The position numbers were made by a program, and so were the translations under genes. 64,000 bases of DNA. Source: Candidatus Bathyarchaeota archaeon (GTDB lineage: Archaea > Thermoproteota > Bathyarchaeia > 40CM-2-53-6 > RBG-13-38-9). Each line of letters starts with the position of its first letter. The first letter of the stretch is position 1. The notes beneath the pieces were generated by a model. That model made no database searches. It had not been told where the DNA came from and saw nothing but the letters and a program-made list of their open reading frames with translations. The DNA lies in contig CAWECG010000001.1 of assembly GCA_963807605.1 (NCBI GenBank), positions 154,620 to 218,619 of the forward strand, given 5' to 3'. Positions 7,703 to 62,510 of the stretch are shown piece after piece.

Positions 7703-8215
7703 AAATGTTGACAAAGACATTTGTAATATCCGCATTGGTTGAACATAAACCAGGTGTTCTCTATAAGGTCTCGAACATGTTCTGGCGCCGCGGCTTCAAC
7801 ATTGAGAGCGTATCCATTGGAACTGCGGAGAAGGAAGACTTGGCTAGAATGACGATAACTATCAAGGGTGAGGAGAAAGATGCCGAGCAGCTTGTCGGCC
7901 AGCTTGAGAAACTGATAGATGTCCTCAAAGCTCAACGGCTCGACCCGGAAAAAGCCGTTATGAGAGAGCTTGCCCTCATCAAACTCAGCGCCGTAGACCA
8001 AAAGAATCCGCTCGGACATCTTCCATTACGTCGAGGTATTTAGGGGAAGGATAGTTGATGTCTCCCCGGAGACGGCTACCGTCGAGATAGTTGGGAGTAA
8101 GGACAAGATAGACGCGTTCATCAATCTGACGCGCAACTTCGGGTTAGTGGAGGTTGCTAGGACCGGTGAGACTGCTCTTATAAGGGGACCAGAATCTGTA
8201 AGGATAAGCGAATAA
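7699..8215 (+). pseudogene. ilvN: acetolactate synthase small subunit (ACT domain), disrupted by a +1 frameshift at the A4 run 8000-8003. Possibly a sequencing error
   Basis: Frame 1 (7699-8043) encodes the ACT domain and ends ...LIKLSAVDQKNPLGHLPLRRGI*. The conserved C-terminus KRIRSDIFHYVEVFRGRIVDVSPETATVEIVGSKDKIDAFINLTRNFGLVEVARTGETALIRG continues in frame 2, which opens only after a stop at 7994-7996 and runs to a stop at 8213-8215. Deleting one A of the AAAA run joins the two parts into a ~171 aa IlvH-like protein. Confidence 0.7.
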
Positions 8216-8228
8216 GGTGATTTAGAGT

Positions 8229-9233
8229 ATGGCAAAAGTATTTCACGACAAAGATGCAGACCTAAAGTATCTTGAAGGAAAGACCATAGCCGTTATCGGC
8301 TACGGTAACCAAGGGCACGCTCAAGCCCTGACATTCAGAGACTCGGGCATCAACGTAGTAGTAGGCTTAAGACCTGGAGGAAAATCCTGGAAATTGGCGG
8401 AGCAGGAAGGGTTCAAACCTCTAACAGTGGACGAGGCAGCGAAGAAGGCGGACATCATACACATGCTGTTTCCAGACCTTGAACAGCCGGCAGTCTACAA
8501 GAAATCCATCGAACCGAACCTCAAAGCCGGCAAGACAATCAGCTGCTCACACGCATACAATATACACTTCAAACAGATAATCCCGCCAAAGAACGTAGAC
8601 GTCATCATGGTGGCGCCGAAGAGCCCCGGCTCAAGACTCAGAGAGATCTACAAGCAAGGCTTCGGTGTACCTGCGCTAATAGCGGTCTACCAAGACGTCT
8701 CCGGCAAAGCGAAAGGGACAGTGCTTGCAATGGCCAAAGCTTTGGGCGCAACGAAGGCAGGAGTGATAGAGACGACATTCAAAGAAGAAGCCGAGACCGA
8801 CATAATAGGCGAACAGATAGTCCTCGGAGGGGGATCAATGGAACTGATCAAGAAGGGCTTCGAAGTCCTCGTTGAGGCGGGCTATCAACCTGAACTCGCA
8901 TACTTCGAGGTTGCTAATGAGCTGAAGCTCATGGTCGATCTTCTCTACGAAGGCGGGCTAACTAGGATGATGAAGATGATATCCCACACGGCGCAGTACG
9001 GTAGCATGACCGTCGGTCCTCGAGTGATAGATGACCACGTGAAGGAGAACATGCGCAAGGTTGTAAAATTCGTTCAGAGCGGTGAATTCGCAAGAGAGTG
9101 GAGCGGTGACCCTCAGAAGAGCATGGAGAGACTGAACAAGCTGATGAAGGAGCTTGAGGAACACCCGGTAGAGAAGGTTGGGAAAACAATCAGACAGATG
9201 GCTGGAACCGAGAGAGGTGCCACTGCCTACTGA
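8229..9233 (+). CDS. ilvC: ketol-acid reductoisomerase (class I)
   Basis: [15 protein letters not shown] motif. 334 aa. Confidence 0.95.
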
Positions 9234-9280
9234 CTGTGATCAATGAATTCCATACCTAGCATTCGAAAACCATGCGAAAA

Positions 9281-9296
9281 TCACTCTTTTTTTCCG
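9281..9296 (+). terminator. oligo-T tract (T7) downstream of ilvC, candidate archaeal terminator
   Basis: A CTCTTTTTTTCC tract lies 50 nt after the ilvC stop. Confidence 0.3.
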
Positions 9297-9352
9297 AAAA
9301 CTCTTTATTAGAGTACGATATGATGTTTAGGCAACATGGCAGGCTATGAAAA

Positions 9353-10615
9353 TTGAACATATTCGAAAAGATCCTCGCTAGGGCATCGGAAAGAAAGGAA
9401 GTAACCCCAGGGGAGATAGTCGAAGCAAACATCGATATGGCGATGATTCACGACCTAACCGGTCCTCTAACAGTGGACTCCTTCCGTAAGATTGGCGCCG
9501 AGAAAGTATGGGACCCAAAGAAGATAGTGGTAATTTTTGACCACTTGGTTCCTCCAAGCACCGTCAGGGCTGCTACCCTCCAAAAAGGAGTCAGAGAATT
9601 CGTGAGAGAACAAGGAATCAGAAGCTTCTACGATGTCGGCCAAGGAGGGGTCTGCCACCAAGTCTTTCATGAGAAGGGATATGCAAGACCCGGTGAACTG
9701 GTCGTCGGTGCCGACTCACACACATGCACCTACGGAGCACTAGGAGCCTTAGCTACTGGAATAGGATCAACCGAGATGGCAGCAGTCTTTACAACAGGAA
9801 GAATGTGGTTCAAAGTGCCTAAAGTCATGAAGATCCATACTAGCGGAAAATTCGAGAAAAATGTTACCTCAAAGGATCTCATACTAAGAATAATCGGAGA
9901 TATTGGAGAGGGTGGAGCAATATACAAGGGAATGGAATTCACAGGTCCAACATTCACAAACATGAGCATTGATGGAAGATTAACAGTATGTAATATGGTG
10001 GTCGAGGCAGGAGCAAAAGCAGGCATAGTCCCGCCAGACAACAAAACCCTCACTTACGTCAGAGCAAGAACAAAGAAACCATTCAAACCATTAAAAAGTG
10101 ATAAAGACGAAGCTTATGAAGAGCAGCTAGAATACGATGTTTCAAAACTAGCTGCTCAAGTAGCCTGCCCCTCATCAGTTGATAACGTCAAACCTGCATC
10201 TGAACTGTCTAACGTAAAAGTAGACCAAGTATTCATAGGATCATGCACAAACGGACGAATCGAAGATCTCAGGTTCGCTGCATCAATCCTGAAGGGTAAA
10301 AACCTTCACCGCGATGTCCGAATGATCGTAAGCCCCTCATCCCAACAAGTATACAGCCAATGCCTCAAAGAGGGGCTGTTCCAAATATTCATGGAAGCTG
10401 GCGCAATAGTGACCAATGCAACGTGCGGGCCCTGTCTGGGTGGACATATGGGATTACTAGCTGCAGGAGAGGTCTGTATCAGTACCTCAAATCGTAATTT
10501 CATAGGCAGAATGGGAAGCCCTCAATCCTACGTTTACCTGGCTAATCCAGCTACAGCAGCAGCATCTGGAATAGCTGGATACATAATCGATCCAAATGAA
10601 TTGAGGAGGAGATGA
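9353..10615 (+). CDS. leuC: 3-isopropylmalate / homoaconitate dehydratase large subunit (aconitase family)
   Basis: TTG start. Aconitase-family Fe-S cysteines are present. 420 aa. Confidence 0.9.
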   Translation: MNIFEKILARASERKEVTPGEIVEANIDMAMIHDLTGPLTVDSFRKIGAEKVWDPKKIVVIFDHLVPPSTVRAATLQKGVREFVREQGIRSFYDVGQGGVCHQVFHEKGYARPGELVVGADSHTCTYGALGALATGIGSTEMAAVFTTGRMWFKVPKVMKIHTSGKFEKNVTSKDLILRIIGDIGEGGAIYKGMEFTGPTFTNMSIDGRLTVCNMVVEAGAKAGIVPPDNKTLTYVRARTKKPFKPLKSDKDEAYEEQLEYDVSKLAAQVACPSSVDNVKPASELSNVKVDQVFIGSCTNGRIEDLRFAASILKGKNLHRDVRMIVSPSSQQVYSQCLKEGLFQIFMEAGAIVTNATCGPCLGGHMGLLAAGEVCISTSNRNFIGRMGSPQSYVYLANPATAAASGIAGYIIDPNELRRR

Positions 10616-11115
10616 AGTTGATCATTACTGCAAAAGCTGTAAAGTTTGGAAACAATATAAACACAGACGTAATCCTACCGGGTAAATATCTTGAATTGAT
10701 CGATCCTAACGAACTAGGAAAACATGCATTGGAAGGACTTGATCCAACCTTCCCGCAGAGAGCAAAAGAAGGTGTAATAATCGTAGGTGGCAAGAACTTC
10801 GGTTGCGGATCAAGCAGAGAACAAGCCCCAATAGCTCTAAAGGCGGCAGGAGTTAAATGTGTCCTCGCTGAGTCATTCGCAAGGATCTTCTATAGGAACG
10901 CGATAAACATAGGGCTGCCGGCCCTAGAATGCTCAGGCATCTCAGAAAAAACCAATGAAAGTGACTCGATCTCTATAAACTTGAAAGACGGAATTGTGGA
11001 AAACCACACTAAAGGAATCACCTTAAAGACCTCCCCTATGCCCGAGTTTATCATGAATCTATTAGAAGAAGGAGGCCTCATCCCTCATACAAGAGGCCTG
11101 ATCGGTAAAAAATGA
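10612..11115 (+). CDS. leuD: 3-isopropylmalate / homoaconitate dehydratase small subunit
   Basis: Aconitase swivel domain with an overlapping ATGA start. 167 aa. Confidence 0.9.
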   Translation: MKLIITAKAVKFGNNINTDVILPGKYLELIDPNELGKHALEGLDPTFPQRAKEGVIIVGGKNFGCGSSREQAPIALKAAGVKCVLAESFARIFYRNAINIGLPALECSGISEKTNESDSISINLKDGIVENHTKGITLKTSPMPEFIMNLLEEGGLIPHTRGLIGKK

Positions 11116-11225
11116 GAGAACATAACATCGCACTTATACCTGGCGATGGTATTGGCCCAGAACAGACTGAAGCTGCACTGAAGGTTTTAGAAGCGCGCGC
11201 TAAGAGTATAAGAGAAAAATGCTAA
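11112..11225 (+). pseudogene. leuB: N-terminal remnant (37 codons) of the native 3-isopropylmalate/homoisocitrate dehydrogenase gene
   Basis: ATG overlaps the leuD stop. It encodes MREHNIALIPGDGIGPEQTEAALKVLEARAKSIREKC*, the classic IPMDH/IDH N-terminus, with host-like codon usage. It terminates just after a GCGCGCGC tract (11193-11200). Confidence 0.6.
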
Positions 11226-11241
11226 GGAGAAAAGAAGAACG

Positions 11242-12303
11242 ATGAGAAAGAAATATAATGTCGCAGTAATTGGCGGTGACGGTACAGGTCCGGAAGTGGT
11301 AGCAGAAGGATTAAAAGTCCTGAAAGCAGCTTCGAATGAATTTGGTTTTTCGTATGATACGACAATGTTTGATTTCGGTGGTGAGCGGTACCTGAAGACC
11401 GGAAAAACAATTACCGATGAAGAACTGGAAGGATTGAAAAAGTTTGATGCGATCTATCTTGGTGCAATCGGACATCCGGATGTAAAACCGGGAATTCTGG
11501 AGCAAGGAATTCTTCTCAAGATACGATTTGCGCTCGATCAGTATATTAATTTACGTCCGGTGAAACTCTATAATGAAGCCTTTTGTCCCTTAAAGGATAA
11601 GAAACCGGAAGATGTTGATTTCGTCGTTGTGCGTGAAAATTCCGAAGGCCTCTACAAAGGACTCGGCAGTTTTGAAAATAAAGGGACAAAAAATGAAGTA
11701 GCAATTCAAATATCGCACAATACACGGAAAGGCGTTGAACGCTGTATTCGCTATGCGTTTGAATACTGCAAGAAACGCAACAGCAAGAAAAAGAAACTCA
11801 CGCTCTGCGGAAAAACGAATGTCCTGACATATGCATGGGATCTCTGGCAGCGAACATTTGATGAAGTGAAAAAAGAATATCCAGACATTCAAACCGAGTA
11901 TGTGAATGTTGATGCAACAACCATGTGGTTTGTAAAAAATCCAGAATGGTTTGATGTGATTGTTACTGATAATTTATTCGGTGATATTATCACTGATCTT
12001 GGAGCGATGGTGCAAGGCGGTATGGGTATCGCCGCGGGTGGCAATATTAATCCGGAAGGCGTTTCTATGTTTGAACCGATCGGCGGATCTGCACCAAAGT
12101 ATACCGGGAAACATGTTATTAATCCGCTTGCAGGGATTTGCGCCCTTGGGATGCTTCTGGAAAATATCGGTGAAGAAAAAGCCGGCAAAGGCGTTGAGAA
12201 TACAGTGATTCGTCTTGTTCAGACTAAGATAAGAAGCCTTTCAGCAGGAAAGATGGGGTATACCACCGAAGAAGTCGGCGATATGGTTGCAGGCGGGTTA
12301 TAA
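11242..12303 (+). CDS. complete isopropylmalate/tartrate/isocitrate dehydrogenase-family gene with foreign (AT-rich, bacterial-like) codon usage, inserted inside native leuB
   Basis: 353 aa intact ORF with its own AAGGAG RBS 8 nt before the ATG. It shows a strong AAA/GAA/TTT codon bias unlike its neighbours. IPMDH-family motifs are present, including NLFGDIITD and a GGDGTG N-terminus. It is flanked at 11193-11200 and 12312-12320 by GCGCGCGC(G) tracts. Confidence 0.8.
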
Positions 12304-12308
12304 GAAAA

Positions 12309-12482
12309 ACACGCGCGCGCTGTGAAAAGGAAGACGACACGAAGTGGACGAATGCAGCTAACGCAATTGAGGAAGCCTTCGTCAACAATCTAGAACAAGG
12401 CGTCTACACACCTGATCTTGGAGGGAAGAGTAGAACAGCGGAAGTTGGAAAAGCAATAGCACAACAAATAATCGAGGGATAA
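12309..12482 (+). pseudogene. leuB: C-terminal remnant of the native leuB-like dehydrogenase
   Basis: It encodes ...TKWTNAANAIEEAFVNNLEQGVYTPDLGGKSRTAEVGKAIAQQIIEG*, an IPMDH/IDH C-terminus, with host-like codon usage. Reading frame 0 matches the N-terminal remnant. The stop lies 2 nt before the leuA ATG. Confidence 0.55.
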
Positions 12483-12484
12483 GA

Positions 12485-14011
12485 ATGCAGCAGGAGAAGG
12501 ATAGAGTCTGGATATTTGATACTACTCTAAGGGACGGCGAACAGACTCCCGGGGTATCCCTCACACCAGAGGAGAAGCTAGAGATAGCTATGAAGCTGGA
12601 CGAGCTTGGCGTCGACACTATAGAGGCGGGTTTCCCAAGAGTATCACGAGGGGAAGTTGAAGCTACTAAGCTCATTTTGAAACAAGGTCTGAAGGCCAAA
12701 GTCTGCGGACTCGCACGGACTGACCAGAAGGACATCGATGCCGCTCTCGAATGTGGAGTCCCCTACATACACGTATTCATAGCAACCTCAGAGATCCACA
12801 TGAAACACAAACTGCAAATGAATAAACAACAGGTTCTAGAGGCTGCAACAAAATGGGTAGGTTACGCGAAGGATCACGGTGTGATTGTAGAATTCTCACC
12901 TGAAGACGCGACTAGAACCGAGCCCGACTTCCTCAAACAGGTCCTTAAGGTCGCTGAAGAGGCTGGAGCCGACATAATAAACGTTCCAGACACCGTCAGC
13001 GCCGCAACACCTGAGAGGATGTTCGAGATCATAAAAGAATGCGTATCCACGGTAGCCATACCGATCAGCGTTCACTGCCACAATGATTTCGGCTTGGCTG
13101 TAGCAAACTCACTCGCCGGAATCAGAGCAGGAGCATCGCAAGCCCATGTAACAATAAATGGGCTGGGCGAAAGAGCAGGTAACGCCTCTCTTGAAGAGTT
13201 TGTAATGTCCCTCCATCTGCTAGAGAATAAGAAGACAAGCATCAACACCAAGCTCATCTACGAGACCTCAAGACTGGTATCCGGGCTTACAGGCGTACTT
13301 ATACAGCCGAACAAGGCTATAGTTGGAGAGAATGCCTTCGGTCATGAATCCGGGATCCATACACATGGAATGCTGAAAAGTCCCTTAACATATGAACCGA
13401 TCACCCCTGAGCTTGTTGGAAGAAAGAGATGGTTCCAAGCCGGAAAACATGCCGGAGGACACGGCCTTGCCGCCAAGCTTGAGGAGGACGGCCTTCATCC
13501 AACTGAAGAACAGATGAAAGAGATAACCCGTCGAGTCAAGGATATCGGCGACAGGGGAAAGATGGTGGCCGATGCAGACCTATTCGCAATCGCCAAAGCA
13601 GTTATCGGCGGAGTTTCGGAAGAGAAGAAGATCGTTGAGTTAGAGAATCTCACAGTTGTAACAGGAACAGGCGTGGTCCCAACATCATCGGTCAAGCTAC
13701 TTATTGACGGAAAAGAGTACATATCCTCGGAGACCGGCGTTGGGCCGGTCGACGCTGCCATCAAGGCTATCCACAAGATAGTTGGTCCGCTGGCGGACGT
13801 GAGATTGAAGGAGTATCGACTGGAAGCCACAACTGGTGGGTCCGACGCTTTAGCCGAAGTCCTCATAAAGATAGAGGATAGCGCAGGCAACATTGTGTCG
13901 GCCAGAGCAGCCAGAACAGATGTGGTGACTGCAAGCGTAGAAGCAGTGATAGAAGGAATCAACAGGACACTAATCAAGAGCCGCATCAAGAGTTCCGAAG
14001 ACCGGCGCTGA
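12485..14011 (+). CDS. leuA: 2-isopropylmalate synthase with C-terminal LeuA-dimer/regulatory domain
   Basis: [15 protein letters not shown] and HCHND motifs with a long C-terminal regulatory domain. 508 aa. Confidence 0.9.
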
Positions 14012-14055
14012 GCACGACACTTCAGAGCTTCCAGAAAGATAGACAGTGACTCATT

Positions 14056-15186
14056 GTGGCCAAGCACAGGATAGCACTTCTTCCGGGCGATGGTATCGGC
14101 AAAGACGTAATCGATGCAGCCAAGATAGTTCTTGACGCGACAAGACTTGACGCCGAGTATTTTCTCGGTGAGATTGGATGGGAATTCTGGAAGAACGAGG
14201 GCGACCCTTTACCCCAGAGAACTCTAAGCCTACTTAGAAGGACCGACGCCTGCTTGATGGGAGCAATAACCTCCAAACCTAAGGATGAAGCTCAACTTGA
14301 GCTAGACCCCAAGCTGAAGAACAAAGCTTACGATTACTACAGCCCAATAGTCAGGCTCCGTCAGGAGTTTAATCTCCACACGAACATAAGACCCTGCAAG
14401 AGCTACAAAGGCAACCCACTCAACTTCAGAGAAGGAATAGACATAGTAGTATTCAGAGAGAATACCGAAGGCCTCTACAGCGGAGTTGAGTTCCACCCCC
14501 TGCCGTTGCCACTGATGCAGTGGCTAATTAAGAATCATCCGAAGATGAAGAGATTCGAATCTACGCCTCTTGATGAGATAGCAATCTCATTGAGGATAAT
14601 GACTAGGAAAGCCTGCGATACGATCCTGACCAGTGCATTCGAGTACGCCAAGAAGAAAGACTACAAGACCGTCACCGTAGTCGAGAAGCCGAACGTACTG
14701 AGAGAGACAGGCGCGCTGATGCTCAGAGAAGCGCGAAGAATTGCCACGAACTACCCTTCAATTCAACTCCTAGAAGGAAATATAGACGCGATCTGTATGT
14801 GGCTGATAAAGAACCCCTTAGACTACTCGATAATTGTGGCTGAGAACCTTTTCGGAGACATCATCTCCGACCTCTGCGCGCAACTTGTGGGAGGCTTAGG
14901 CTTCGCGCCGAGCGCGAACGTCGGTGATAGCTATGCAATCTTTGAACCAACACATGGCTCGGCTCCGAAGTATGCGGGACAGTACAAAGTCAACCCTCTG
15001 GCAACAATCCTCTCTGCAGCTATGATGCTTGAATACCTTAGAGAAAATGCCTTGGCAGCAAGAGTTGAAAACGCAGTCGCAGCTGTCATCGCAGAAGGAA
15101 GAGTAAGAACCTACGATATGGGCGGAAGCAGCACCACCTTGGATATGGCACATGCCATATCTGACAAGCTGAGTTCAAGCTCGTAA
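14056..15186 (+). CDS. isocitrate/3-isopropylmalate/homoisocitrate dehydrogenase family enzyme (may supply LeuB and/or homoisocitrate dehydrogenase activity)
   Basis: GTG start. RIALLPGDGIG N-terminus and NLFGDIISD motif. 376 aa. Confidence 0.85.
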   Translation: MAKHRIALLPGDGIGKDVIDAAKIVLDATRLDAEYFLGEIGWEFWKNEGDPLPQRTLSLLRRTDACLMGAITSKPKDEAQLELDPKLKNKAYDYYSPIVRLRQEFNLHTNIRPCKSYKGNPLNFREGIDIVVFRENTEGLYSGVEFHPLPLPLMQWLIKNHPKMKRFESTPLDEIAISLRIMTRKACDTILTSAFEYAKKKDYKTVTVVEKPNVLRETGALMLREARRIATNYPSIQLLEGNIDAICMWLIKNPLDYSIIVAENLFGDIISDLCAQLVGGLGFAPSANVGDSYAIFEPTHGSAPKYAGQYKVNPLATILSAAMMLEYLRENALAARVENAVAAVIAEGRVRTYDMGGSSTTLDMAHAISDKLSSSS

Positions 15187-15398
15187 TTCTATTGAAAAAT
15201 TGTGGGCAGAGGAAGCTAGATCTTCACGGCATTTGAGTCTCCAAACCTCTTTTTTCTACGCGGCGTCGTAACACTTGTTAGAAGGTCGGTATATCAGGAC
15301 CTTCCTTAGCACTACGATTGGTTACGGTCTTGTCTACGGTTGTGGTCAATCGAAAACGAAGTAGGAGCTTGACGAGTAATATCGATCATTGAATTTCT

Positions 15399-15779
15399 CT
15401 AAGGCGTTTGCTCACGGTATATGTGACATATTATTCCTGCGATTAAGATGAGAACCGCTCCCACTCCAACCAATTGGGGTCCTGAGATCAAAGATGCGAT
15501 TATGAGTACAACTCCGATCACGATGCCTCTTACCCCTGCACTAGCAAGTCTGCTCTTACTTGTCATGTGGAAACAATCGAATCCTAAAAGGGCGCCTACG
15601 ATCTCTATTATGATCCCGGCCAAGTACGTATATTGAAGCGGTTCGCGAAGTCCGAAGGTTGGATACACCGTCGTTATCGGAAGACTCAGAACCGCAATTA
15701 TAAGGACAATAGTGGAACCTAGCAGGAAAAAGATGGATGCTAAATCCAAGAGCGTCTTTCTGCTGAAGGCTTCAGGCAT
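15399..15779 (-). CDS. hypothetical small membrane protein (about 4 TM segments)
   Basis: 126 aa ORF made up almost entirely of hydrophobic segments. No recognisable motif. Confidence 0.35.
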   Translation of the reverse strand: MPEAFSRKTLLDLASIFFLLGSTIVLIIAVLSLPITTVYPTFGLREPLQYTYLAGIIIEIVGALLGFDCFHMTSKSRLASAGVRGIVIGVVLIIASLISGPQLVGVGAVLILIAGIICHIYREQTP

Positions 15780-15959
15780 AACAAGTCACTACCATATTAT
15801 TCCTCTTGTTTAGTATTTAGAAATTCCTGAGAGTGATGGGGACTTCGTTGAGGATCTGTTTACAGGTGATTCCATGCAGCTTCGATCTTAATTGAGTTAA
15901 TCAGAGAAAAAATCAAATTTATCTGCTCAGCATCAGTTGATTCGGCGGTGTGAAGATTC

Positions 15960-16289
15960 ATGGATATGTCAGAATTGATGAATCTGCTGCAGGCGACCAT
16001 TGGCTCGGTAGTGATGATTTCAAGCTCAACCTTGTTGTGTCTAGTAATACAAACACGATATGGAAGAGTTGTCGACAAGATTCGACAGCTCATATACGAA
16101 CGACGTCGTCTTCAACAATCAGATAGCCACAAGCAATCGCTTTCAGGCGCGAATAGGGATCTGGCTCAAGAAAGACTCAACAATATTGATACTCAGATAG
16201 GTCTTCTGCTCAATAGAGGTTCCAAACTTAAGCGAGCTCTTTTCTTCACTTTCTCCGCGTCTTCGCCTTCATATTCAGTTCCTTCCTAA
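15960..16289 (+). CDS. hypothetical protein (N-terminal TM, Arg-rich middle). May be one gene with 16304-16489, separated by a frameshift
   Basis: 109 aa ORF followed 15 nt later by a 61 aa TM ORF in another frame. The architecture is vaguely DUF2721-like. Confidence 0.25.
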   Translation: MDMSELMNLLQATIGSVVMISSSTLLCLVIQTRYGRVVDKIRQLIYERRRLQQSDSHKQSLSGANRDLAQERLNNIDTQIGLLLNRGSKLKRALFFTFSASSPSYSVPS

Positions 16290-16303
16290 TATTTGTAGGT
16301 TCA

Positions 16304-16489
16304 ATGCTGGGACCGGCTATGACAATTCCTTTTGTCGCATTGACATTCTTCTTTGGCATGTTATTCCTTCTGCTCGGCGCTGTCACCACCGTTAATGAAA
16401 TCGCAAACTCCTACGATGTTGTCACCAAAGAAGTGAAGTTTGCAAAGTTCGAGGCATTGAGAATTTCTAATCAGACATCAGAACCATGA
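16304..16489 (+). CDS. hypothetical small membrane protein (possible continuation of 15960-16289)
   Basis: 61 aa with one hydrophobic helix. Confidence 0.2.
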   Translation: MLGPAMTIPFVALTFFFGMLFLLLGAVTTVNEIANSYDVVTKEVKFAKFEALRISNQTSEP

Positions 16490-16633
16490 AGGCATCGTCG
16501 AAAGCTTCGAACCCCTTGGCTAACCTAATCTCTGTCACCCAAGTATCCGGCAAGGTGGGAGCGCCATCGGGAACAAACGGTTGATTGACAATCTGTAGCG
16601 GTTTTGCAGACAATCTTGAGAGACAATGAGCGG

Positions 16634-17302
16634 CTATTTCGTTGCTGTCTTCTCTTTGTGTCTCCTTTCAAGTTCCTTGAATATTTCGCCTAGTGCTACT
16701 TTTCTTGATGCAAGAAGAATCATCAGGTGAAAGATCAAGTCCGTTACTTCCGATACAAGTGCATTCGGCTTGTCTTTCGGCGCTAGAATGACCTCTGTGG
16801 ACTCTTCGCTGATCTTCCTCAGGATCGCGCTTTCACCCTCATCCACCAAGCTCTTGACATAAGATCTCTCGTCGCCGCTCCTTATCCGTTCACCTACTAT
16901 CTCATATATTCTGTTCAATGTTGATGCGTTCGGACGAGGCTCCTCCTCTTTGATGACTGGCTTGTGAAAGCAGCTTTCCATGTTTGTGTGACAACATGGA
17001 CCTACCTGTTGAACTTTGAACAAGACGGCATCGTTGTCGCAGTCCAGACTAAGATTCTGCACTATAGAAAAGTGTCCGGACTCTTCGCCTTTCATCCAAA
17101 GCCTCTTTCTAGTGCGGCTCCAGAAGTGGGTCTTCCCTGAGACCAGGGTAAGTATGAAGGCCTCCCTATTCATATATGCCTGCATGAGAACCCTATTGTT
17201 AGAGGCGTCCTGGACTATCGCCGGGATCAGTCCATTACCTTTTTCAAAGTCAATCCTCTGAGCCATCTCCTCCGCCTCTTTTCTGCTCATCTGCAGAACC
17301 AT
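16634..17302 (-). CDS. hisI: bifunctional phosphoribosyl-AMP cyclohydrolase / phosphoribosyl-ATP pyrophosphatase
   Basis: HisI cyclohydrolase N-domain (C...CH Zn site) and HisE-type C-terminal NTP-pyrophosphatase domain. 222 aa. Confidence 0.9.
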   Translation of the reverse strand: MVLQMSRKEAEEMAQRIDFEKGNGLIPAIVQDASNNRVLMQAYMNREAFILTLVSGKTHFWSRTRKRLWMKGEESGHFSIVQNLSLDCDNDAVLFKVQQVGPCCHTNMESCFHKPVIKEEEPRPNASTLNRIYEIVGERIRSGDERSYVKSLVDEGESAILRKISEESTEVILAPKDKPNALVSEVTDLIFHLMILLASRKVALGEIFKELERRHKEKTATK

Positions 17303-17317
17303 TCGCCCCAGATCCTC

Positions 17318-18124
17318 CTATGATGTCGGTCTGACAGGAACTCCGTGACTCGAAAGGTACTCTTTGACCTTCATAACAGGATAAGTGGCTCGGTGGAATA
17401 TTGATGCGGCCAGCGCAGCATCGGCTGCCCCTTCGACCAACGCCTCTCGAATATGCTCGGGATCACCAGCCCCTCCGCTAGCGATAATCGGTATGTGCGT
17501 ACTCTCGGAGATGGTTCTTGTAAGAGGTATGTCATAGCCTCGCTGTGTCCCATCGCAGTCCATACTTGTAAGGAGGATTTCACCAGCACCCAACTCCTCG
17601 ACACGGGTTGCCCATTCCACTGCGTCGATCCCGGTTGGTATCCTTCCACCTTCAACATGGACTTGCCACCAACACGCTCCCTGTGGTGTATCCACGACCA
17701 TCTTGTTGTCACGTTTCTCGTAGGACCTCTTTGCGTCAATGGCAACTACGATGCATTGAGTGCCGAAAGCCTCAGCTGCTCTCTTGACAAGGGTCGGGTC
17801 CTTCACAGCACCTGTATTTATTGAGATCTTATCTGCACCTGAACCTAGTATCTCGCGGATGCCTTCTATCGACAGTATTCCGCCACCGACAGTAAACGGT
17901 ATGAAGAGAGTCTCAGCGGTTCTCTTGACGACATCGAGGAAAATCTTTCTTCTCTCAAAAGATGCTGTGATGTCGAGGAAGACTACTTCGTCAGCACCTT
18001 CCGCGCCGTAGGCTTCAGCGAGCTTAGCGGGATCGCCTTCCTCCTTTATATTAACAAACTTGACCCCTTTGACTACCTTTCCATCTTTGACATCGAGGCA
18101 TGGGATTATTCTCTTAACCAGCAT
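17318..18124 (-). CDS. hisF: imidazole glycerol phosphate synthase cyclase subunit
   Basis: [16 protein letters not shown] start. (beta/alpha)8 HisF. 268 aa. Confidence 0.95.
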
Positions 18125-18836
18125 TCATTGCAGCCTCCAGGGCCTCTTTCAAAGTGAACTTGTTCTCGTATAGTGCCGTACCCAAGATTACGCCTTGAAC
18201 ACCTATCTTTGCTAGAGCGCGTATATCCTCCGGGCTACTTATTCCTCCTGAGGCTATCACAGGAATCTTCAGTTGGCGGACAAGCCTCTTTGTGTCGTTG
18301 AGCGCCGGGCCGCCTAATGTCCCATCCGCATTGACTGAGGTGAAGATTACGGATCCGACACCTATCGCTTCCAGTTTCTGTGCGACTTCAATATACTCAA
18401 GAGAAGTCTTGCTCCTCCATCCCTCTATTGCTGGGCTGCCATTCTTGACATCTATGGCTGCGGCAACTCTGTCCTTGCCGAAGATGGAGGCGGCTTCTGA
18501 AACAAGTTCAGGCTTTCTGATGGATGCCGTTCCAAATATGATTCTTGTAACGCCGAGGTCTAGGACCTGCCTTGCCTTCTCAATCGTTCTTATTCCGCCT
18601 CCAACCTCGGTCTTGATCTGTACCGACTTCACGATTCTGCTTATGGTCTTGGTGTTCTCTCCGAGACCTAAGGCAGCGTCTAAGTCAACTATGTGAAGCA
18701 TCTCAGCACCCTGTGCTTGAAAGAATCTGGAAGCCTCTGATGGATCCTCATAGTATTGTTTGGTTCTCGAAGGATCTCCCTGGAAAAGTCGGACGCATCT
18801 TCCGCGCATAAGATCGATAGCTGGAATTACTATCAC
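18114..18836 (-). CDS. hisA: ProFAR isomerase
   Basis: VIPAIDL...GG HisA signature. 240 aa. Confidence 0.9.
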
Positions 18837-18844
18837 AGGTTATA

Positions 18845-19453
18845 CTACTTCCTTATCACCCCGACGAAGTTTCTAAGTACTGTCAAACCAGCCTGTGAGC
18901 TCTTCTCGGGGTGAAATTGGGTGGCAAACACGTTTCCCCTCTCAAGAATTGAAGGAAACTCCGTTCCGTATTCTGTCTTTGCAACTACGTCGCCCTCATC
19001 CTCCGGCTTCGCAACGTAGGAGTGAACAAAATAAGCATATGAGTTATCTGGAACTCCCTCAAGAATCGGGCTTTTTCTAATTATCTCGATATTATTCCAT
19101 CCAATTTGGGGAAGCTTAACGTTCGTCGGCAGCTTGACTACCTCTCCTTTTAGAAGATTTAGGCCAGGAGTTACTCTGCCCTCATAGCTCTTTGTGAACA
19201 AGAGCTGGAGACCGAGGCATATCCCCAACAGTGGCTTTCCATTCTTGACTTCCTGAATCAATACGTCTTCAAGTTTTGAGAGGTTCTTCTTTGCTTCTGC
19301 GAAAGCGCCGACTCCAGGCAGAACTATGGCATCAGCACTTCTTACCTTTGCAGGATCGCTTAGGATCTCAACCTCAGCTCCCGCTTTCTCGAGGCCTTTC
19401 TTGACGCTATACAGATTTCCAACGCCGTAGTTGACGATGATTACTAAAGTCAC
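18845..19453 (-). CDS. hisH: imidazole glycerol phosphate synthase glutaminase subunit
   Basis: Class I glutamine amidotransferase with catalytic Cys in GICLGLQ. 202 aa. Confidence 0.9.
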   Translation of the reverse strand: MTLVIIVNYGVGNLYSVKKGLEKAGAEVEILSDPAKVRSADAIVLPGVGAFAEAKKNLSKLEDVLIQEVKNGKPLLGICLGLQLLFTKSYEGRVTPGLNLLKGEVVKLPTNVKLPQIGWNNIEIIRKSPILEGVPDNSYAYFVHSYVAKPEDEGDVVAKTEYGTEFPSILERGNVFATQFHPEKSSQAGLTVLRNFVGVIRK

Positions 19454-19454
19454 T

Positions 19455-20033
19455 CTATAGTTCGCCTTTCGTGCTAGGAATAGTCTTGCGGGCTCTTAGT
19501 TCTAATGAGCATGCTTCCCTTAGCGCTAAAGCTAGAGCCTTTGTTGAAGCTTCTACCTTGTGATGATCGTTGGTTCCGTATAAAGCTGTCACATGGATGT
19601 TCGACTTAGATGATTGTGCCAGAGAAACGAAGAAATGATCTATGTCCTCAGTCTTCAAGTCCTCAATTTCATTCGACTGAATTTTCAGATCGATACTTGG
19701 ATAGGCTCTTCCTCCGAGATCGATCACTGCTCTAGCCAGCGAATCGTCCATTGGTACATGTGCTGAACCGAATCTTCTTATGCCCCTCTTGTCTCCTAGA
19801 GCTTTGTTTACGGCTTCTCCGAGTGCAAGTCCAATATCTTCTGACAGGTGGTGTTTGAGGTCTCCGGAGGCCTTTACCTCCAAGTCTATGAGCGAGTGTC
19901 TGCCGAGAGTAGTCAGTAGATGATTAAGGAATCTGTTTCCCGTCTCCACCTTGACGTTTCCTTTACCGTCCAGGTTAAGTCTCACTGAGATCTTAACCTC
20001 GGCTGTCTCTCTCTTGACTGCTACTTTTCTCAA
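19455..20033 (-). CDS. hisB: imidazoleglycerol-phosphate dehydratase
   Basis: IGPD His-rich Mn motifs. 192 aa. Monofunctional, with no HAD phosphatase domain. Confidence 0.9.
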   Translation of the reverse strand: MRKVAVKRETAEVKISVRLNLDGKGNVKVETGNRFLNHLLTTLGRHSLIDLEVKASGDLKHHLSEDIGLALGEAVNKALGDKRGIRRFGSAHVPMDDSLARAVIDLGGRAYPSIDLKIQSNEIEDLKTEDIDHFFVSLAQSSKSNIHVTALYGTNDHHKVEASTKALALALREACSLELRARKTIPSTKGEL

Positions 20034-61953: not shown

Positions 61954-62292
61954 TTACTCTCGCCAGCCTGACCTTGTAGTCTTGGCCTCTTTGACCAGCT
62001 GTTCTTTCATGATGGACCTTACTAAGTTACATGCTTCTATGATTCTGGGGTTAGAGAGTGAGTAGTACACGCTTTTTCCTTCTCTTCTCTCATTGATTAT
62101 CCTGTTGCGGCGCATGACCGAGAGATGTTGAGAGACGTTGGGTTGTCTTAGTTGTGTGATGTTTGCAAGCTCGGTGACAGTCTTTTCGCCTTTTTCCAGA
62201 ATGTGAAGTATCTCGAGTCTCTTAGGATTGGTTAGGACCTTGCAGAACTCTGACTGCAGCTTGTACAGGGAGGGTTCGGACTCAGATAGCAA
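61954..62292 (-). CDS. ArsR/SmtB-family HTH transcriptional regulator
   Basis: Winged-HTH pattern NPKRLEILHILEKGEKTVTELANITQLRQPNVSQHLSVMR. 112 aa. First gene of the minus-strand cluster. Confidence 0.8.
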   Translation of the reverse strand: MLSESEPSLYKLQSEFCKVLTNPKRLEILHILEKGEKTVTELANITQLRQPNVSQHLSVMRRNRIINERREGKSVYYSLSNPRIIEACNLVRSIMKEQLVKEAKTTRSGWRE

Positions 62293-62510
62293 GAGTATTC
62301 AATATTTCGAATATTATGGCTCTATTAAAGCATTTGCGAGAATTACGTTCTAACTGGGTATTATCGATTAGGGCTAGCTCTAGAAGCAGGTTTACGCGCG
62401 CGCGCTTGGCGTGTTCTTAAGTTATGTCGGTGCAGAAACTTTAAGCTCTATCTTGCTAAGAGACACGATAGGCATCTACAACGTGCTCTTCCCTTTAAAG
62501 AGAAGTCAGC

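Follow-up and report, generated by a model that had tools for sequence, protein, structure and literature searches.

In a 64,000-nt stretch of a Candidatus Bathyarchaeota archaeon contig (CAWECG010000001.1, positions 154,620 to 218,619 of the forward strand; assembly GCA_963807605.1), hereafter the window, the operon ilvC-leuC-leuD-leuB-leuA carries a bacterial-type leuB gene (the insert, or cassette) at its leuB position, and the two ends of an archaeal-type leuB stand on either side of it. We interpret this arrangement as a natural in-situ xenologous gene displacement seen at an intermediate stage, and we place the probability of this interpretation at about 85%. Displacement of operon genes in situ has long been inferred from gene trees, but the route has remained open. 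Is the resident gene replaced directly, or is a second gene gained elsewhere and the resident one lost afterward? The locus described here keeps the intermediate, that is, the incomer, the junctions, and both native ends, and thus shows direct replacement within the resident gene.

The insert (11242 to 12303, plus strand) encodes a complete 3-isopropylmalate dehydrogenase of 353 amino acids. It scored 505.2 bits against the NF002898 model (PRK03437 type; cut-off, 393), with residues 2 to 350 of 353 covered. Among solved structures, M. tuberculosis LeuB (1W0D) is the closest, and in the alignment with it the motifs of the insert are intact, including NLFGDIITD: the Tyr in ENxEGxY, the Lys in KxNVL, the Asp in VDA, and DxxxD in GDIxTD. 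Substitutions that distinguish the window copy from other cassette copies are mostly conservative and fall at variable columns. The insert is therefore a predicted complete LeuB, expected to carry out the oxidative decarboxylation of 3-isopropylmalate. Its codon usage, first described as strikingly different from that of the host, is indeed different, but the difference is moderate. The GC content of the insert is 0.429 versus a host mean of 0.485 (z = -3.8), GC at third codon positions is 0.385 versus 0.517 (z = -3.4), and the codon similarity index is 0.710 versus 0.782 (z = -3.2); for all three measures the insert ranks lowest among the 44 long open reading frames (ORFs) of the window. A Shine-Dalgarno-type ribosome-binding site, AAGGAG (11224 to 11229, plus strand), precedes the ATG at 11242 by 12 nt, not by the 8 nt first reported, and came with the donor spacer. 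This imported site should be usable in the Bathyarchaeia host, because Shine-Dalgarno-like motifs precede several host operon genes (AGGTGAT at ilvC, AGGAGG at leuD).

Both ends of the resident gene can be recognized. The N-terminal stub is an ORF of 37 codons (11112 to 11225, plus strand), of which codons 1 to 28 (11112 to 11195, ending in KVLEA) are native archaeal leuB; its tail, RAKSIREKC*, results from readthrough over the junction into the donor spacer. The ATG of the stub overlaps the leuD stop codon (ATGA), and its own stop codon, TAA (11223 to 11225), overlaps the ribosome-binding site of the insert. This ORF matches positions 1 to 28 of the Pfam family Iso_dh (PF00180) and up to positions 1 to 32 of NCBIfam dehydrogenase models. 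It is 65% identical to residues 2 to 27 of P0136, a full-length native Bathyarchaeia LeuB (425 bits with TIGR02088 LEU3_arch; cut-off, 409.8), and 61 to 81% identical to sampled native N termini over 29 anchored residues. The C-terminal stub (12322 to 12482, plus strand) comprises ~53 codons and the native stop codon TAA (12480 to 12482). The frame-0 peptide encoded at 12309 to 12482 matches Iso_dh positions 307 to 348, the stub is 67% identical to residues 297 to 341 of P0136, and its last bases (GAGGGATAAGA) form the ribosome-binding context of leuA. In the window, the native gene is reduced to residues ~1 to 28 and ~289 to 341, and ~260 central codons are gone. Judged by these matches, the stubs are remnants of an archaeal-type (LEU3_arch) leuB without a complete catalytic domain. 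The original prediction, made from the letters of this stretch, had proposed that a foreign dehydrogenase replaces the middle of native leuB and that the flanking peptides are true leuB termini, and both proposals are borne out.

Where did the insert come from? Searched against a collection of 5.8 billion protein clusters, the insert gave best matches of 80 to 89% identity, and the labeled ones among them are Omnitrophota metagenome-assembled genomes (MAGs), with Omnitrophota-labeled copies at 80 to 85%. The closest copy found in a metagenome scan lies on L087, a 725-kb contig whose NCBI protein label is Bacteroidota, at 91.5% protein and 82.6% nucleotide identity. In a neighbor-joining tree, the four archaeal copies (those of the window and of contigs L006, L009, and L086) formed one tight clade nested among bacterial sequences; the sister clade is labeled Omnitrophota. 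These relationships agree with the initial expectation that the nearest relatives of the 353-residue product would be bacterial, and they identify the insert as being of bacterial affinity, unlike its archaeal flanks.

The closest donor-like loci (L084, L087, and L176 to L179) have the bacterial gene order leuA-leuC-methyltransferase-leuD-proC-leuB-hom; an Omnitrophota-labeled locus, L085, has the order leuC-leuD-leuB-asd. The donor-derived segment in the window (11201 to 12311, plus strand) starts with a TAA that is aligned with the bacterial proC stop codon and consists of a 38-nt spacer with the ribosome-binding site, leuB, and ~8 nt of 3' spacer, which stops where the next gene of the donor (hom) would begin. 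BLASTN homology to the bacterial-context loci L087 and L176 to L179 covers exactly 11201 to 12309 of the window, at 82 to 83% nucleotide identity. As delimited by this alignment, therefore, the imported piece is one gene with its complete spacers and nothing else.

Each junction is marked by an alternating GC tract. On the left, native sequence runs up to ...GTTTTAGAAGCG (VLEA, codon 28), followed by CGCGC and then by TAAGAGTATAAGAG..., which is aligned with the bacterial loci from the proC stop codon on. The left tract, GCGCGCGCT (11193 to 11201), forms together with the preceding A the 10-nt palindrome AGCGCGCGCT and is conserved in L006, L009, L086, and L166 to L175. At the corresponding position, native LeuBs have ...PGDGIGPEQTEATLKVLEA and then A, V, T, or L. 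At the right junction, GAAAAACA comes after the leuB stop codon and agrees with the bacterial spacer as far as the hom ATG; the tract CGCGCGCGCT (12312 to 12321) is next, and native sequence begins behind it. The stop codon is thus separated from native DNA by 8 nt of spacer and a 10-nt GC tract. The right tract carries one substitution each in L006 (GCGTGCGCT) and L009 (GCGCGTGCT). Native LeuBs at this position read ...GGLG[V/L/M]AP[S/G]ANIG....

GC-rich tracts had been noted at both junctions from the start, and the octamer GCGCGCGC is present at 11193 to 11200 and at 12313 to 12320. The window contains six overlapping matches to it (five distinct tracts when merged) compared to 0.47 expected from shuffled sequences. 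The further suggestion that the exchange occurred at GC microhomology is not supported, as neither tract was found in any donor-like locus or in any native leuB sampled. The (GC)4 tracts look like junction-specific sequence rather than homology common to both partners. Their presence at both junctions ties them to the displacement event, and candidate origins are hot spots of breakage, filler made at the joints, or specific recombination sites.

Several familiar explanations of such borders could be set aside. As to a restriction-site explanation, isolated GCGCGC sites are not depleted (6 isolated sites versus 7.5 expected in total), and the site is thus not avoided. A target-site duplication is excluded in that the 9-nt repeats flank a replacement of ~215 codons and not a simple insertion. 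Excision as an intron or by bulge-helix-bulge-type splicing would not restore the gene, as the native middle is gone. Transposon cargo was rejected as well: between leuD and leuA there is no transposase ORF, there are no element-end repeats other than the GC tracts, and a transposase was seen only in an independent event (L083, below). The insert is not an integron gene cassette either, with no attC and just the 8-nt spacer and 10-nt GC tract after the leuB stop codon. Apart from the GC tracts, no repeats, whether inverted or direct, were detected around the cassette, and a repeat search of the whole window returned only chance-level pairs.

Related genomes show what the site looks like before displacement and how often leuB has turned over. 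An intact LEU3_arch leuB lies between leuD and leuA in L007, L010, L013, and L017, among other relatives, which answers the comparison with related genomes that the original prediction called for; the insert occupies the same position in the window, L006, L009, and L086. In L003 to L005 (83 to 84% LeuA identity), the native leuB is reduced to a 17-codon N-terminal stub (MKKHNITVIPGDGI...) and the last ~12 nt with the leuA ribosome-binding site (L003, 5560 to 5680; L004, 1766 to 1890; L005, 5895 to 6015). L005 has another bacterial-type leuB, 65% identical to the insert, ~3 kb downstream (L005, 10570 to 11628). These three loci represent the gain of leuB elsewhere, followed by deletion of the native gene. 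In the more distant Bathyarchaeia contig L008 (4540 to 6010), leuD and leuA enclose a further NF002898-type leuB (69% identical to the insert, 527 bits), flanked by decayed, stop-containing native traces: ...ALIPENRIDPEQ... upstream and LGITPSALVGK and LGIADAKRILE downstream. Each trace is weak, but together they are collinear and rightly placed, and the locus looks like an older, independent in-situ displacement.

A third in-situ event was found in a genome that is unrelated and probably bacterial (L083, 890 to 2864; Logan contig of SRR22388062). There, 29 N-terminal codons of a resident leuB continue in frame into the final 33 codons of the donor proC; an IS200/IS605-family transposase gene with flanking hairpins comes next, followed by a leuB that is 89% identical to the insert. 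L083 has no GC tracts, and its left junction, at about codon 29, is near that of the window. By this structure, it is an independent displacement by the same type of gene. In all three in-situ events, the left junction falls at resident codons 24 to 29. With intact (L007), older displaced (L008), and deleted (L003 to L005) states present in the same archaeal family, the alternative routes can be compared within one clade.

These comparisons show that a bacterial leuB with its own spacers and ribosome-binding site integrated inside a resident archaeal-type leuB, with removal of native codons ~29 to ~245. This event left an N-terminal stub that is start/stop-coupled to leuD and a C-terminal remnant that still supplies the leuA ribosome-binding site. 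The cassette and its left junction then moved among Bathyarchaeia whose operon genes are ~75% identical in DNA, with end points specific to each lineage. In the window lineage, the right side may represent an illegitimate joint or a later 128-nt deletion that started exactly at the (GC)4 tract. The foreign LeuB would now perform the leuB step of the operon. Its translation would start from the imported Shine-Dalgarno site, probably aided by ribosomes terminating at the overlapping stop codon of the N-terminal stub, and ribosomes arriving from leuD may re-initiate at the cassette. The stubs would be relics, which may persist because they are young and because their full deletion would damage the leuD stop codon or the leuA translation signals. 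The native 3' end, in particular, was probably kept because it carries the leuA ribosome-binding site; the same few bases survive in L003 to L005.

The pattern in the window would fit homology-facilitated illegitimate recombination, if the left side arose by a homologous crossover in leuD and the right side by a non-homologous joint or a later deletion. In bacteria, this process uses a homologous anchor on one side and joints at 3- to 10-bp segments on the other (PMC6382021, citing de Vries and Wackernagel 2002; Meier and Wackernagel 2003). The likeness lies in the homologous anchor on one side, here leuD or the N-terminal stub, and in a non-homologous joint that replaces the intervening DNA, which suits the right junction of the window. 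An anchor of this kind is visible in that the block of high identity extends into leuD in the comparison with L006 and into the N-terminal stub in the comparison with L009. The right joint of the window abuts the (GC)4 tract, a sequence present in no native locus sampled, and a later deletion would be an equally possible origin for it. The differences are that the process was described for naturally transformable bacteria and with microhomologies shared by both partners, whereas here the host is an archaeon, the anchor is only ~75% identical in DNA, and the junction tracts are not common to the sampled partners.

Several points weigh against in-situ displacement as we propose it. Recombination between homologous sequences whose DNA differs by ~25% should be very inefficient. 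The donor segment coincides with one gene and its spacers with suspicious exactness, an outcome not foreseen under plain illegitimate recombination. Among the donor candidates detected, none exceeds 82.6% nucleotide identity. The 64-kb window contains no second native-type leuB, and one elsewhere in the genome is possible. Finally, we infer the function of the foreign LeuB, transcription of the operon, and translational coupling from sequence.

The closest precedent is in-situ xenologous gene displacement in mosaic operons, which was reportedly described by Omelchenko, Makarova, Wolf, Rogozin, and Koonin in Genome Biology in 2003 (4:R55; listed among the references of PMC1779527). As in those cases, an operon gene was replaced in place by a distant isofunctional homologue, and its neighbors keep host ancestry. 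In the window, the incomer sits at the operon position of its counterpart, its affinity is unlike that of the flanks, and the resident counterpart has been lost, as far as the 64 kb extend. Isofunctionality is predicted from the models, the insert passing a LeuB equivalog (NF002898, 505 versus 393) and the native protein passing the LEU3_arch subfamily (425 versus 409.8). The mosaic-operon cases were reportedly inferred from phylogeny, whereas here the relics and the exact junctions are preserved, the transfer is cross-domain, and the cassette is spreading secondarily among diverged lineages. We know of no such case that retained both ends of the displaced gene around the incomer. What is new at this locus is an intermediate kept with both relics and exact junctions, a cross-domain transfer, and an import trimmed to the level of one gene.

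Other known systems share single features with the locus. Capsule-locus switching in streptococci and gene-specific sweeps replace a given locus via flanking homology, within or between close species. They resemble the present case in having a low-divergence block in diverged flanks, with end points that vary by recipient, but here the flanks are saturated at synonymous sites. IS200/IS605 elements and integron cassettes also move a gene-sized unit, and in L083 an IS200/IS605 transposase gene lies directly upstream of the same type of leuB; in contrast, the window has no transposase, subterminal hairpins, attC, or integrase. Alternating (CG)n tracts, which may form Z-DNA or are palindromic, are hot spots of breakage and deletion. 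End points at (GC)4-5 tracts were likewise seen at both cassette junctions, at the 128-nt deletion, and at the border of the block at a second locus, that of a DNA ligase gene. Known tracts of this kind pre-exist in the DNA that breaks, whereas those described here are absent from all sampled parental sequences.

Could the tracts themselves be the work of a dedicated process? One potential explanation is a process, so far undescribed, that targets (GC)n tracts or generates them and exchanges the DNA lying between a pair of them; the leuB cassette would be one of its products and not a product of generic illegitimate or homology-facilitated recombination. The second locus bears on this question. 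In L182 to L184, a gene for an ATP-dependent DNA ligase (537 amino acids; L182, 1373 to 2986) lies between the EF-2 gene and the diphthine-ammonia ligase gene. The same interval in the window (55185 to 56083, ~900 nt) contains no ligase gene; it holds a second, possibly related (GC)4 locus (55225 to 55758), with tracts at 55225 to 55232 and 55750 to 55758 around a 518-nt non-coding segment of unrelated sequence. In this segment there is no ORF of >100 codons, its small ORFs have no Pfam match, a search of 55150 to 56100 against Rfam gave no match (E <= 1), and folding gave no sign of a structured RNA (z = -1.2 and +0.3). On the dph6 side, L180 and the window are 96% identical; L180 has the 3' part of the ligase gene (L180, 1 to 560) between two identical ACGCGCGCGCGTA tracts, one in frame inside the ligase gene (LDT to RAR) and the other just after its stop codon. 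The homology to the window ends exactly at the second of these. A survey of 346 kb of other Bathyarchaeia loci turned up such tracts at no other places than the cassette junction, L180 and L181, and a single site in L015. These comparisons suggest that the tracts mark the borders of swapped segments at two loci in the window lineage, and recurrence of junction-specific (GC)n tracts at a second locus is a further new feature of this system.

A dedicated process would account for tracts that flank the cassette on both sides and that neither sampled parent has, for their over-representation in the window, for their near confinement to these places in the other Bathyarchaeia loci, for the start of the extra 128-nt deletion exactly at the right tract, for the precise end of homology at the second locus, and for a donor segment cut exactly at gene borders. 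If it exists, it would be a cassette-exchange system of gene-level precision that domesticates genes across domains, and the ligase region at 55.2 to 55.8 kb would have been swapped by it as well. We nevertheless consider it possible but unlikely. Only two loci are involved, and no enzyme candidate was identified. One of the L180 tracts lies in frame in an apparently intact ligase gene, so that a tract can occur without visible rearrangement. The independent events in L083 and L008 took place without GC tracts. Isolated GCGCGC occurs at about the expected frequency, with no sign of a restriction system acting on the site. Irrespective of which process made them, the junction tracts offer a concrete and testable lead to the mechanism. 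A fifth tract, CGCGCGCGCGC, was observed at 62395 to 62405; it is intergenic, lies upstream of an ArsR-like regulator gene (61954 to 62292, minus strand), and is followed by ~1.5 kb with few ORFs.

Returning to in-situ displacement, we examine the fate of the stubs. In L006, L009, and L086, native sequence resumes at ...ANIGKNFALFEPVHGSAPDIAG..., which gives an open C-terminal remnant of 94 codons, in a different frame from the N-terminal remnant. The C-terminal stub of the window is 128 nt shorter, and the two stubs share a frame there because of the further 128-nt deletion directly after the right tract. The shared reading frame, which had been emphasized at first, is therefore a coincidence. 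Between lineages, the C-terminal remnants have ratios of nonsynonymous to synonymous divergence (dN/dS) of 0 to 0.19 at high dS. This combination suggests that each lineage kept the tail of its own formerly functional gene and that most of the divergence precedes the displacement.

Might the stubs have been kept because the small proteins or regulatory peptides that they encode are functional? Their reading frames are open, no stop codon interrupts the 94-codon remnant in any of the three relatives, where gene callers annotate a gene of 97 to 107 residues, and dN/dS between the remnants is low. However, the stop codon of the N-terminal stub is variable in position, with L009 reading through it owing to an indel in an A-run, and the C-terminal remnant has no conserved start and has lost 128 nt in the window. 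In L003 to L005 only 17 codons of the native gene are left, and the native traces in L008 carry stop codons. The low dN/dS is explained by divergence that accumulated before a very recent displacement. We regard a retained function as improbable.

Evidence on the age and movement of the cassette comes from comparing the archaeal copies. In sliding comparisons of the window, L006, and L009, DNA identity is ~0.75 over leuC, leuD, and leuA and rises to 0.97 to 1.00 over the cassette. The flanking genes leuA, leuC, and leuD differ at a proportion of synonymous sites (pS) of 0.73 to 0.77 (dS of >2.7 or undefined), compared to a cassette dS of 0.02 to 0.05; the exception to saturation is leuD, a portion of which falls within the shared block, in the comparisons of the window with L006 and L086. 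The edges of the block depend on the pair. Between the window and L006, the left edge is at ~10822 to 10860 in leuD, with mismatch density dropping sharply after ~10821. Between the window and L009, it lies at ~11154 to 11168, in codons 15 to 19 of the N-terminal stub. L006 and L009 share a block that ends ~120 nt into the C-terminal remnant, and the identity of the window to the others falls to 0.60 to 0.72 directly after the right tract. A young cassette in saturated flanks, with end points specific to each pair, means that the cassette passed from one diverged lineage to another in recent times. If the shared left junction and the divergence of the C-terminal remnants are also considered, the data indicate one original integration, followed by lateral spread into already diverged lineages via recombination in the operon flanks.

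Vertical inheritance from a single displacement in an ancestor shared by the lineages of the window, L006, and L009 would instead require that constraint makes the cassette look young. The identical left junction in all four archaeal copies, and the same right junction in three, do point to a single original integration. However, constraint on the protein cannot produce a dS of 0.02 to 0.05 next to saturated neighbors, and the block edges differ between pairs. L007 has an intact native leuB, and its LeuA (81% identical to that of the window) falls in the same range as those of the cassette-bearing relatives (83 to 86%). In addition, the C-terminal remnants diverged under purifying selection, as parts of working genes in separate lineages. 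Vertical descent is contradicted by the dS contrast, and we give it hardly any weight. The recent sweep of a bacterial gene through lineages that are saturated at synonymous sites, for which the comparison of cassette and flanks provides direct evidence, is new, and it directly shows that, in uncultured archaea, an adaptive cassette can be brought by recombination into lineages separated by very deep divergence. As a separate observation, dN/dS in the cassette is 0.86 between the window and L009 (L009, 4623 to 5681; dN 0.017, dS 0.019) compared to 0.14 to 0.33 for other pairs, all from small counts; the high value could reflect relaxed or adaptive change after arrival in the window lineage.

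The structure itself is natural, neither chimeric nor engineered, contrary to what had been raised as a possibility. Two read-derived Logan contigs of run ERR10755942 cover it: L001 corresponds to 8006 to 12069 of the window at 100% identity and L002 to 12040 to 19690 at 99.96%. Both are unitig-level contigs, and each holds one junction. The layout of leuD, N-terminal stub, cassette, C-terminal remnant, and leuA recurs in L006 (a third-party-annotated MAG, SRP231805), L009 (a MAG from Lac Pavin sediment), and L086 (a JGI contig), and the L009-type layout is present in 10 retrieved contigs (L166 to L175) of 23 recorded, from JGI, ENA, and NCBI samples. The architecture was thus found in at least three diverged lineages and in many samples, with natural sequence variation. 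L001 and L002 overlap by exactly 30 nt inside the insert (12040 to 12069, the conserved GGNINPEG region), as expected of a de Bruijn graph branch; a near-identical leuB variant, from another cassette lineage or a bacterial relative, therefore probably co-occurs in the sample.

An assembly or binning chimera, in which a bacterial leuB contig was joined to an archaeal operon, could be suspected from the metagenomic origin of the material and from the break of the Logan contigs inside the insert, but the chance of it is negligible: at the junctions, the archaeal and bacterial sequences have <=9 nt in common, too short for a de Bruijn mis-join, both junctions lie within unitig-level contigs, the insert is nested, being enclosed by archaeal sequence to its left and right on one contig, and different assemblers and samples yielded the same junctions with small natural differences. 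We can likewise dismiss a laboratory construct, that is, allelic replacement of leuB by a cloned bacterial leuB with GCGCGC (BssHII-type) linkers, even though restriction enzymes cut at GCGCGC, the insert has been cut down to a single gene and its ribosome-binding site, and the tracts occur in neither parent: the cassette is present in sediment and freshwater metagenomes of several unrelated projects, copies differ by 1 to 4% in nucleotides and also in tract point mutations, C-terminal remnant lengths, and flanks, the window has no vector or marker sequence, and neither a genetic system nor, with hardly an exception, a pure culture is known for Bathyarchaeia.

The host was assigned by the genes flanking the cassette. 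In the window, ilvC (8229 to 9233), leuC (9353 to 10615), leuD (10612 to 11115), and leuA (12485 to 14011) are all on the plus strand. LeuD, the small subunit of isopropylmalate isomerase, scored 202.7 bits with TIGR02087 LEUD_arch, and LeuA, 2-isopropylmalate synthase, scored 685 bits with NF002085. LeuA of the window is 81 to 86% identical in protein sequence to those of the closest Bathyarchaeia MAG contigs, with synonymous sites saturated; judged by these neighbors, therefore, the host of the cassette is a Bathyarchaeia archaeon. The order ilvC-leuC-leuD-leuB-leuA is conserved across relatives, with the cassette gene at the native leuB position. A scan for tRNA genes found none in the window, and Rfam at gathering thresholds gave 0 hits over its whole length. 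A literature search found no paper on this leuB cassette in Bathyarchaeia or on any of the features named above as new.

Downstream of leuA, in the same plus-strand operon region, lies a gene resembling those for isocitrate dehydrogenase (IDH) and homoisocitrate dehydrogenase (HICDH) (14056 to 15186). This gene had been suggested as what kept the pathway functional after the replacement. Such a back-up role is not supported, in that the insert is itself a complete leuB and the IDH/HICDH-like gene is also present in L007, next to an intact native leuB. The protein falls below all curated NCBIfam cut-offs, with AksF2 as the best model (334 bits versus 540). The AksF2 model matches in two stretches, which suggests an inserted segment. 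The gene is kept at 75 to 79% identity in all relatives whose contig reaches that far, regardless of the state of leuB.

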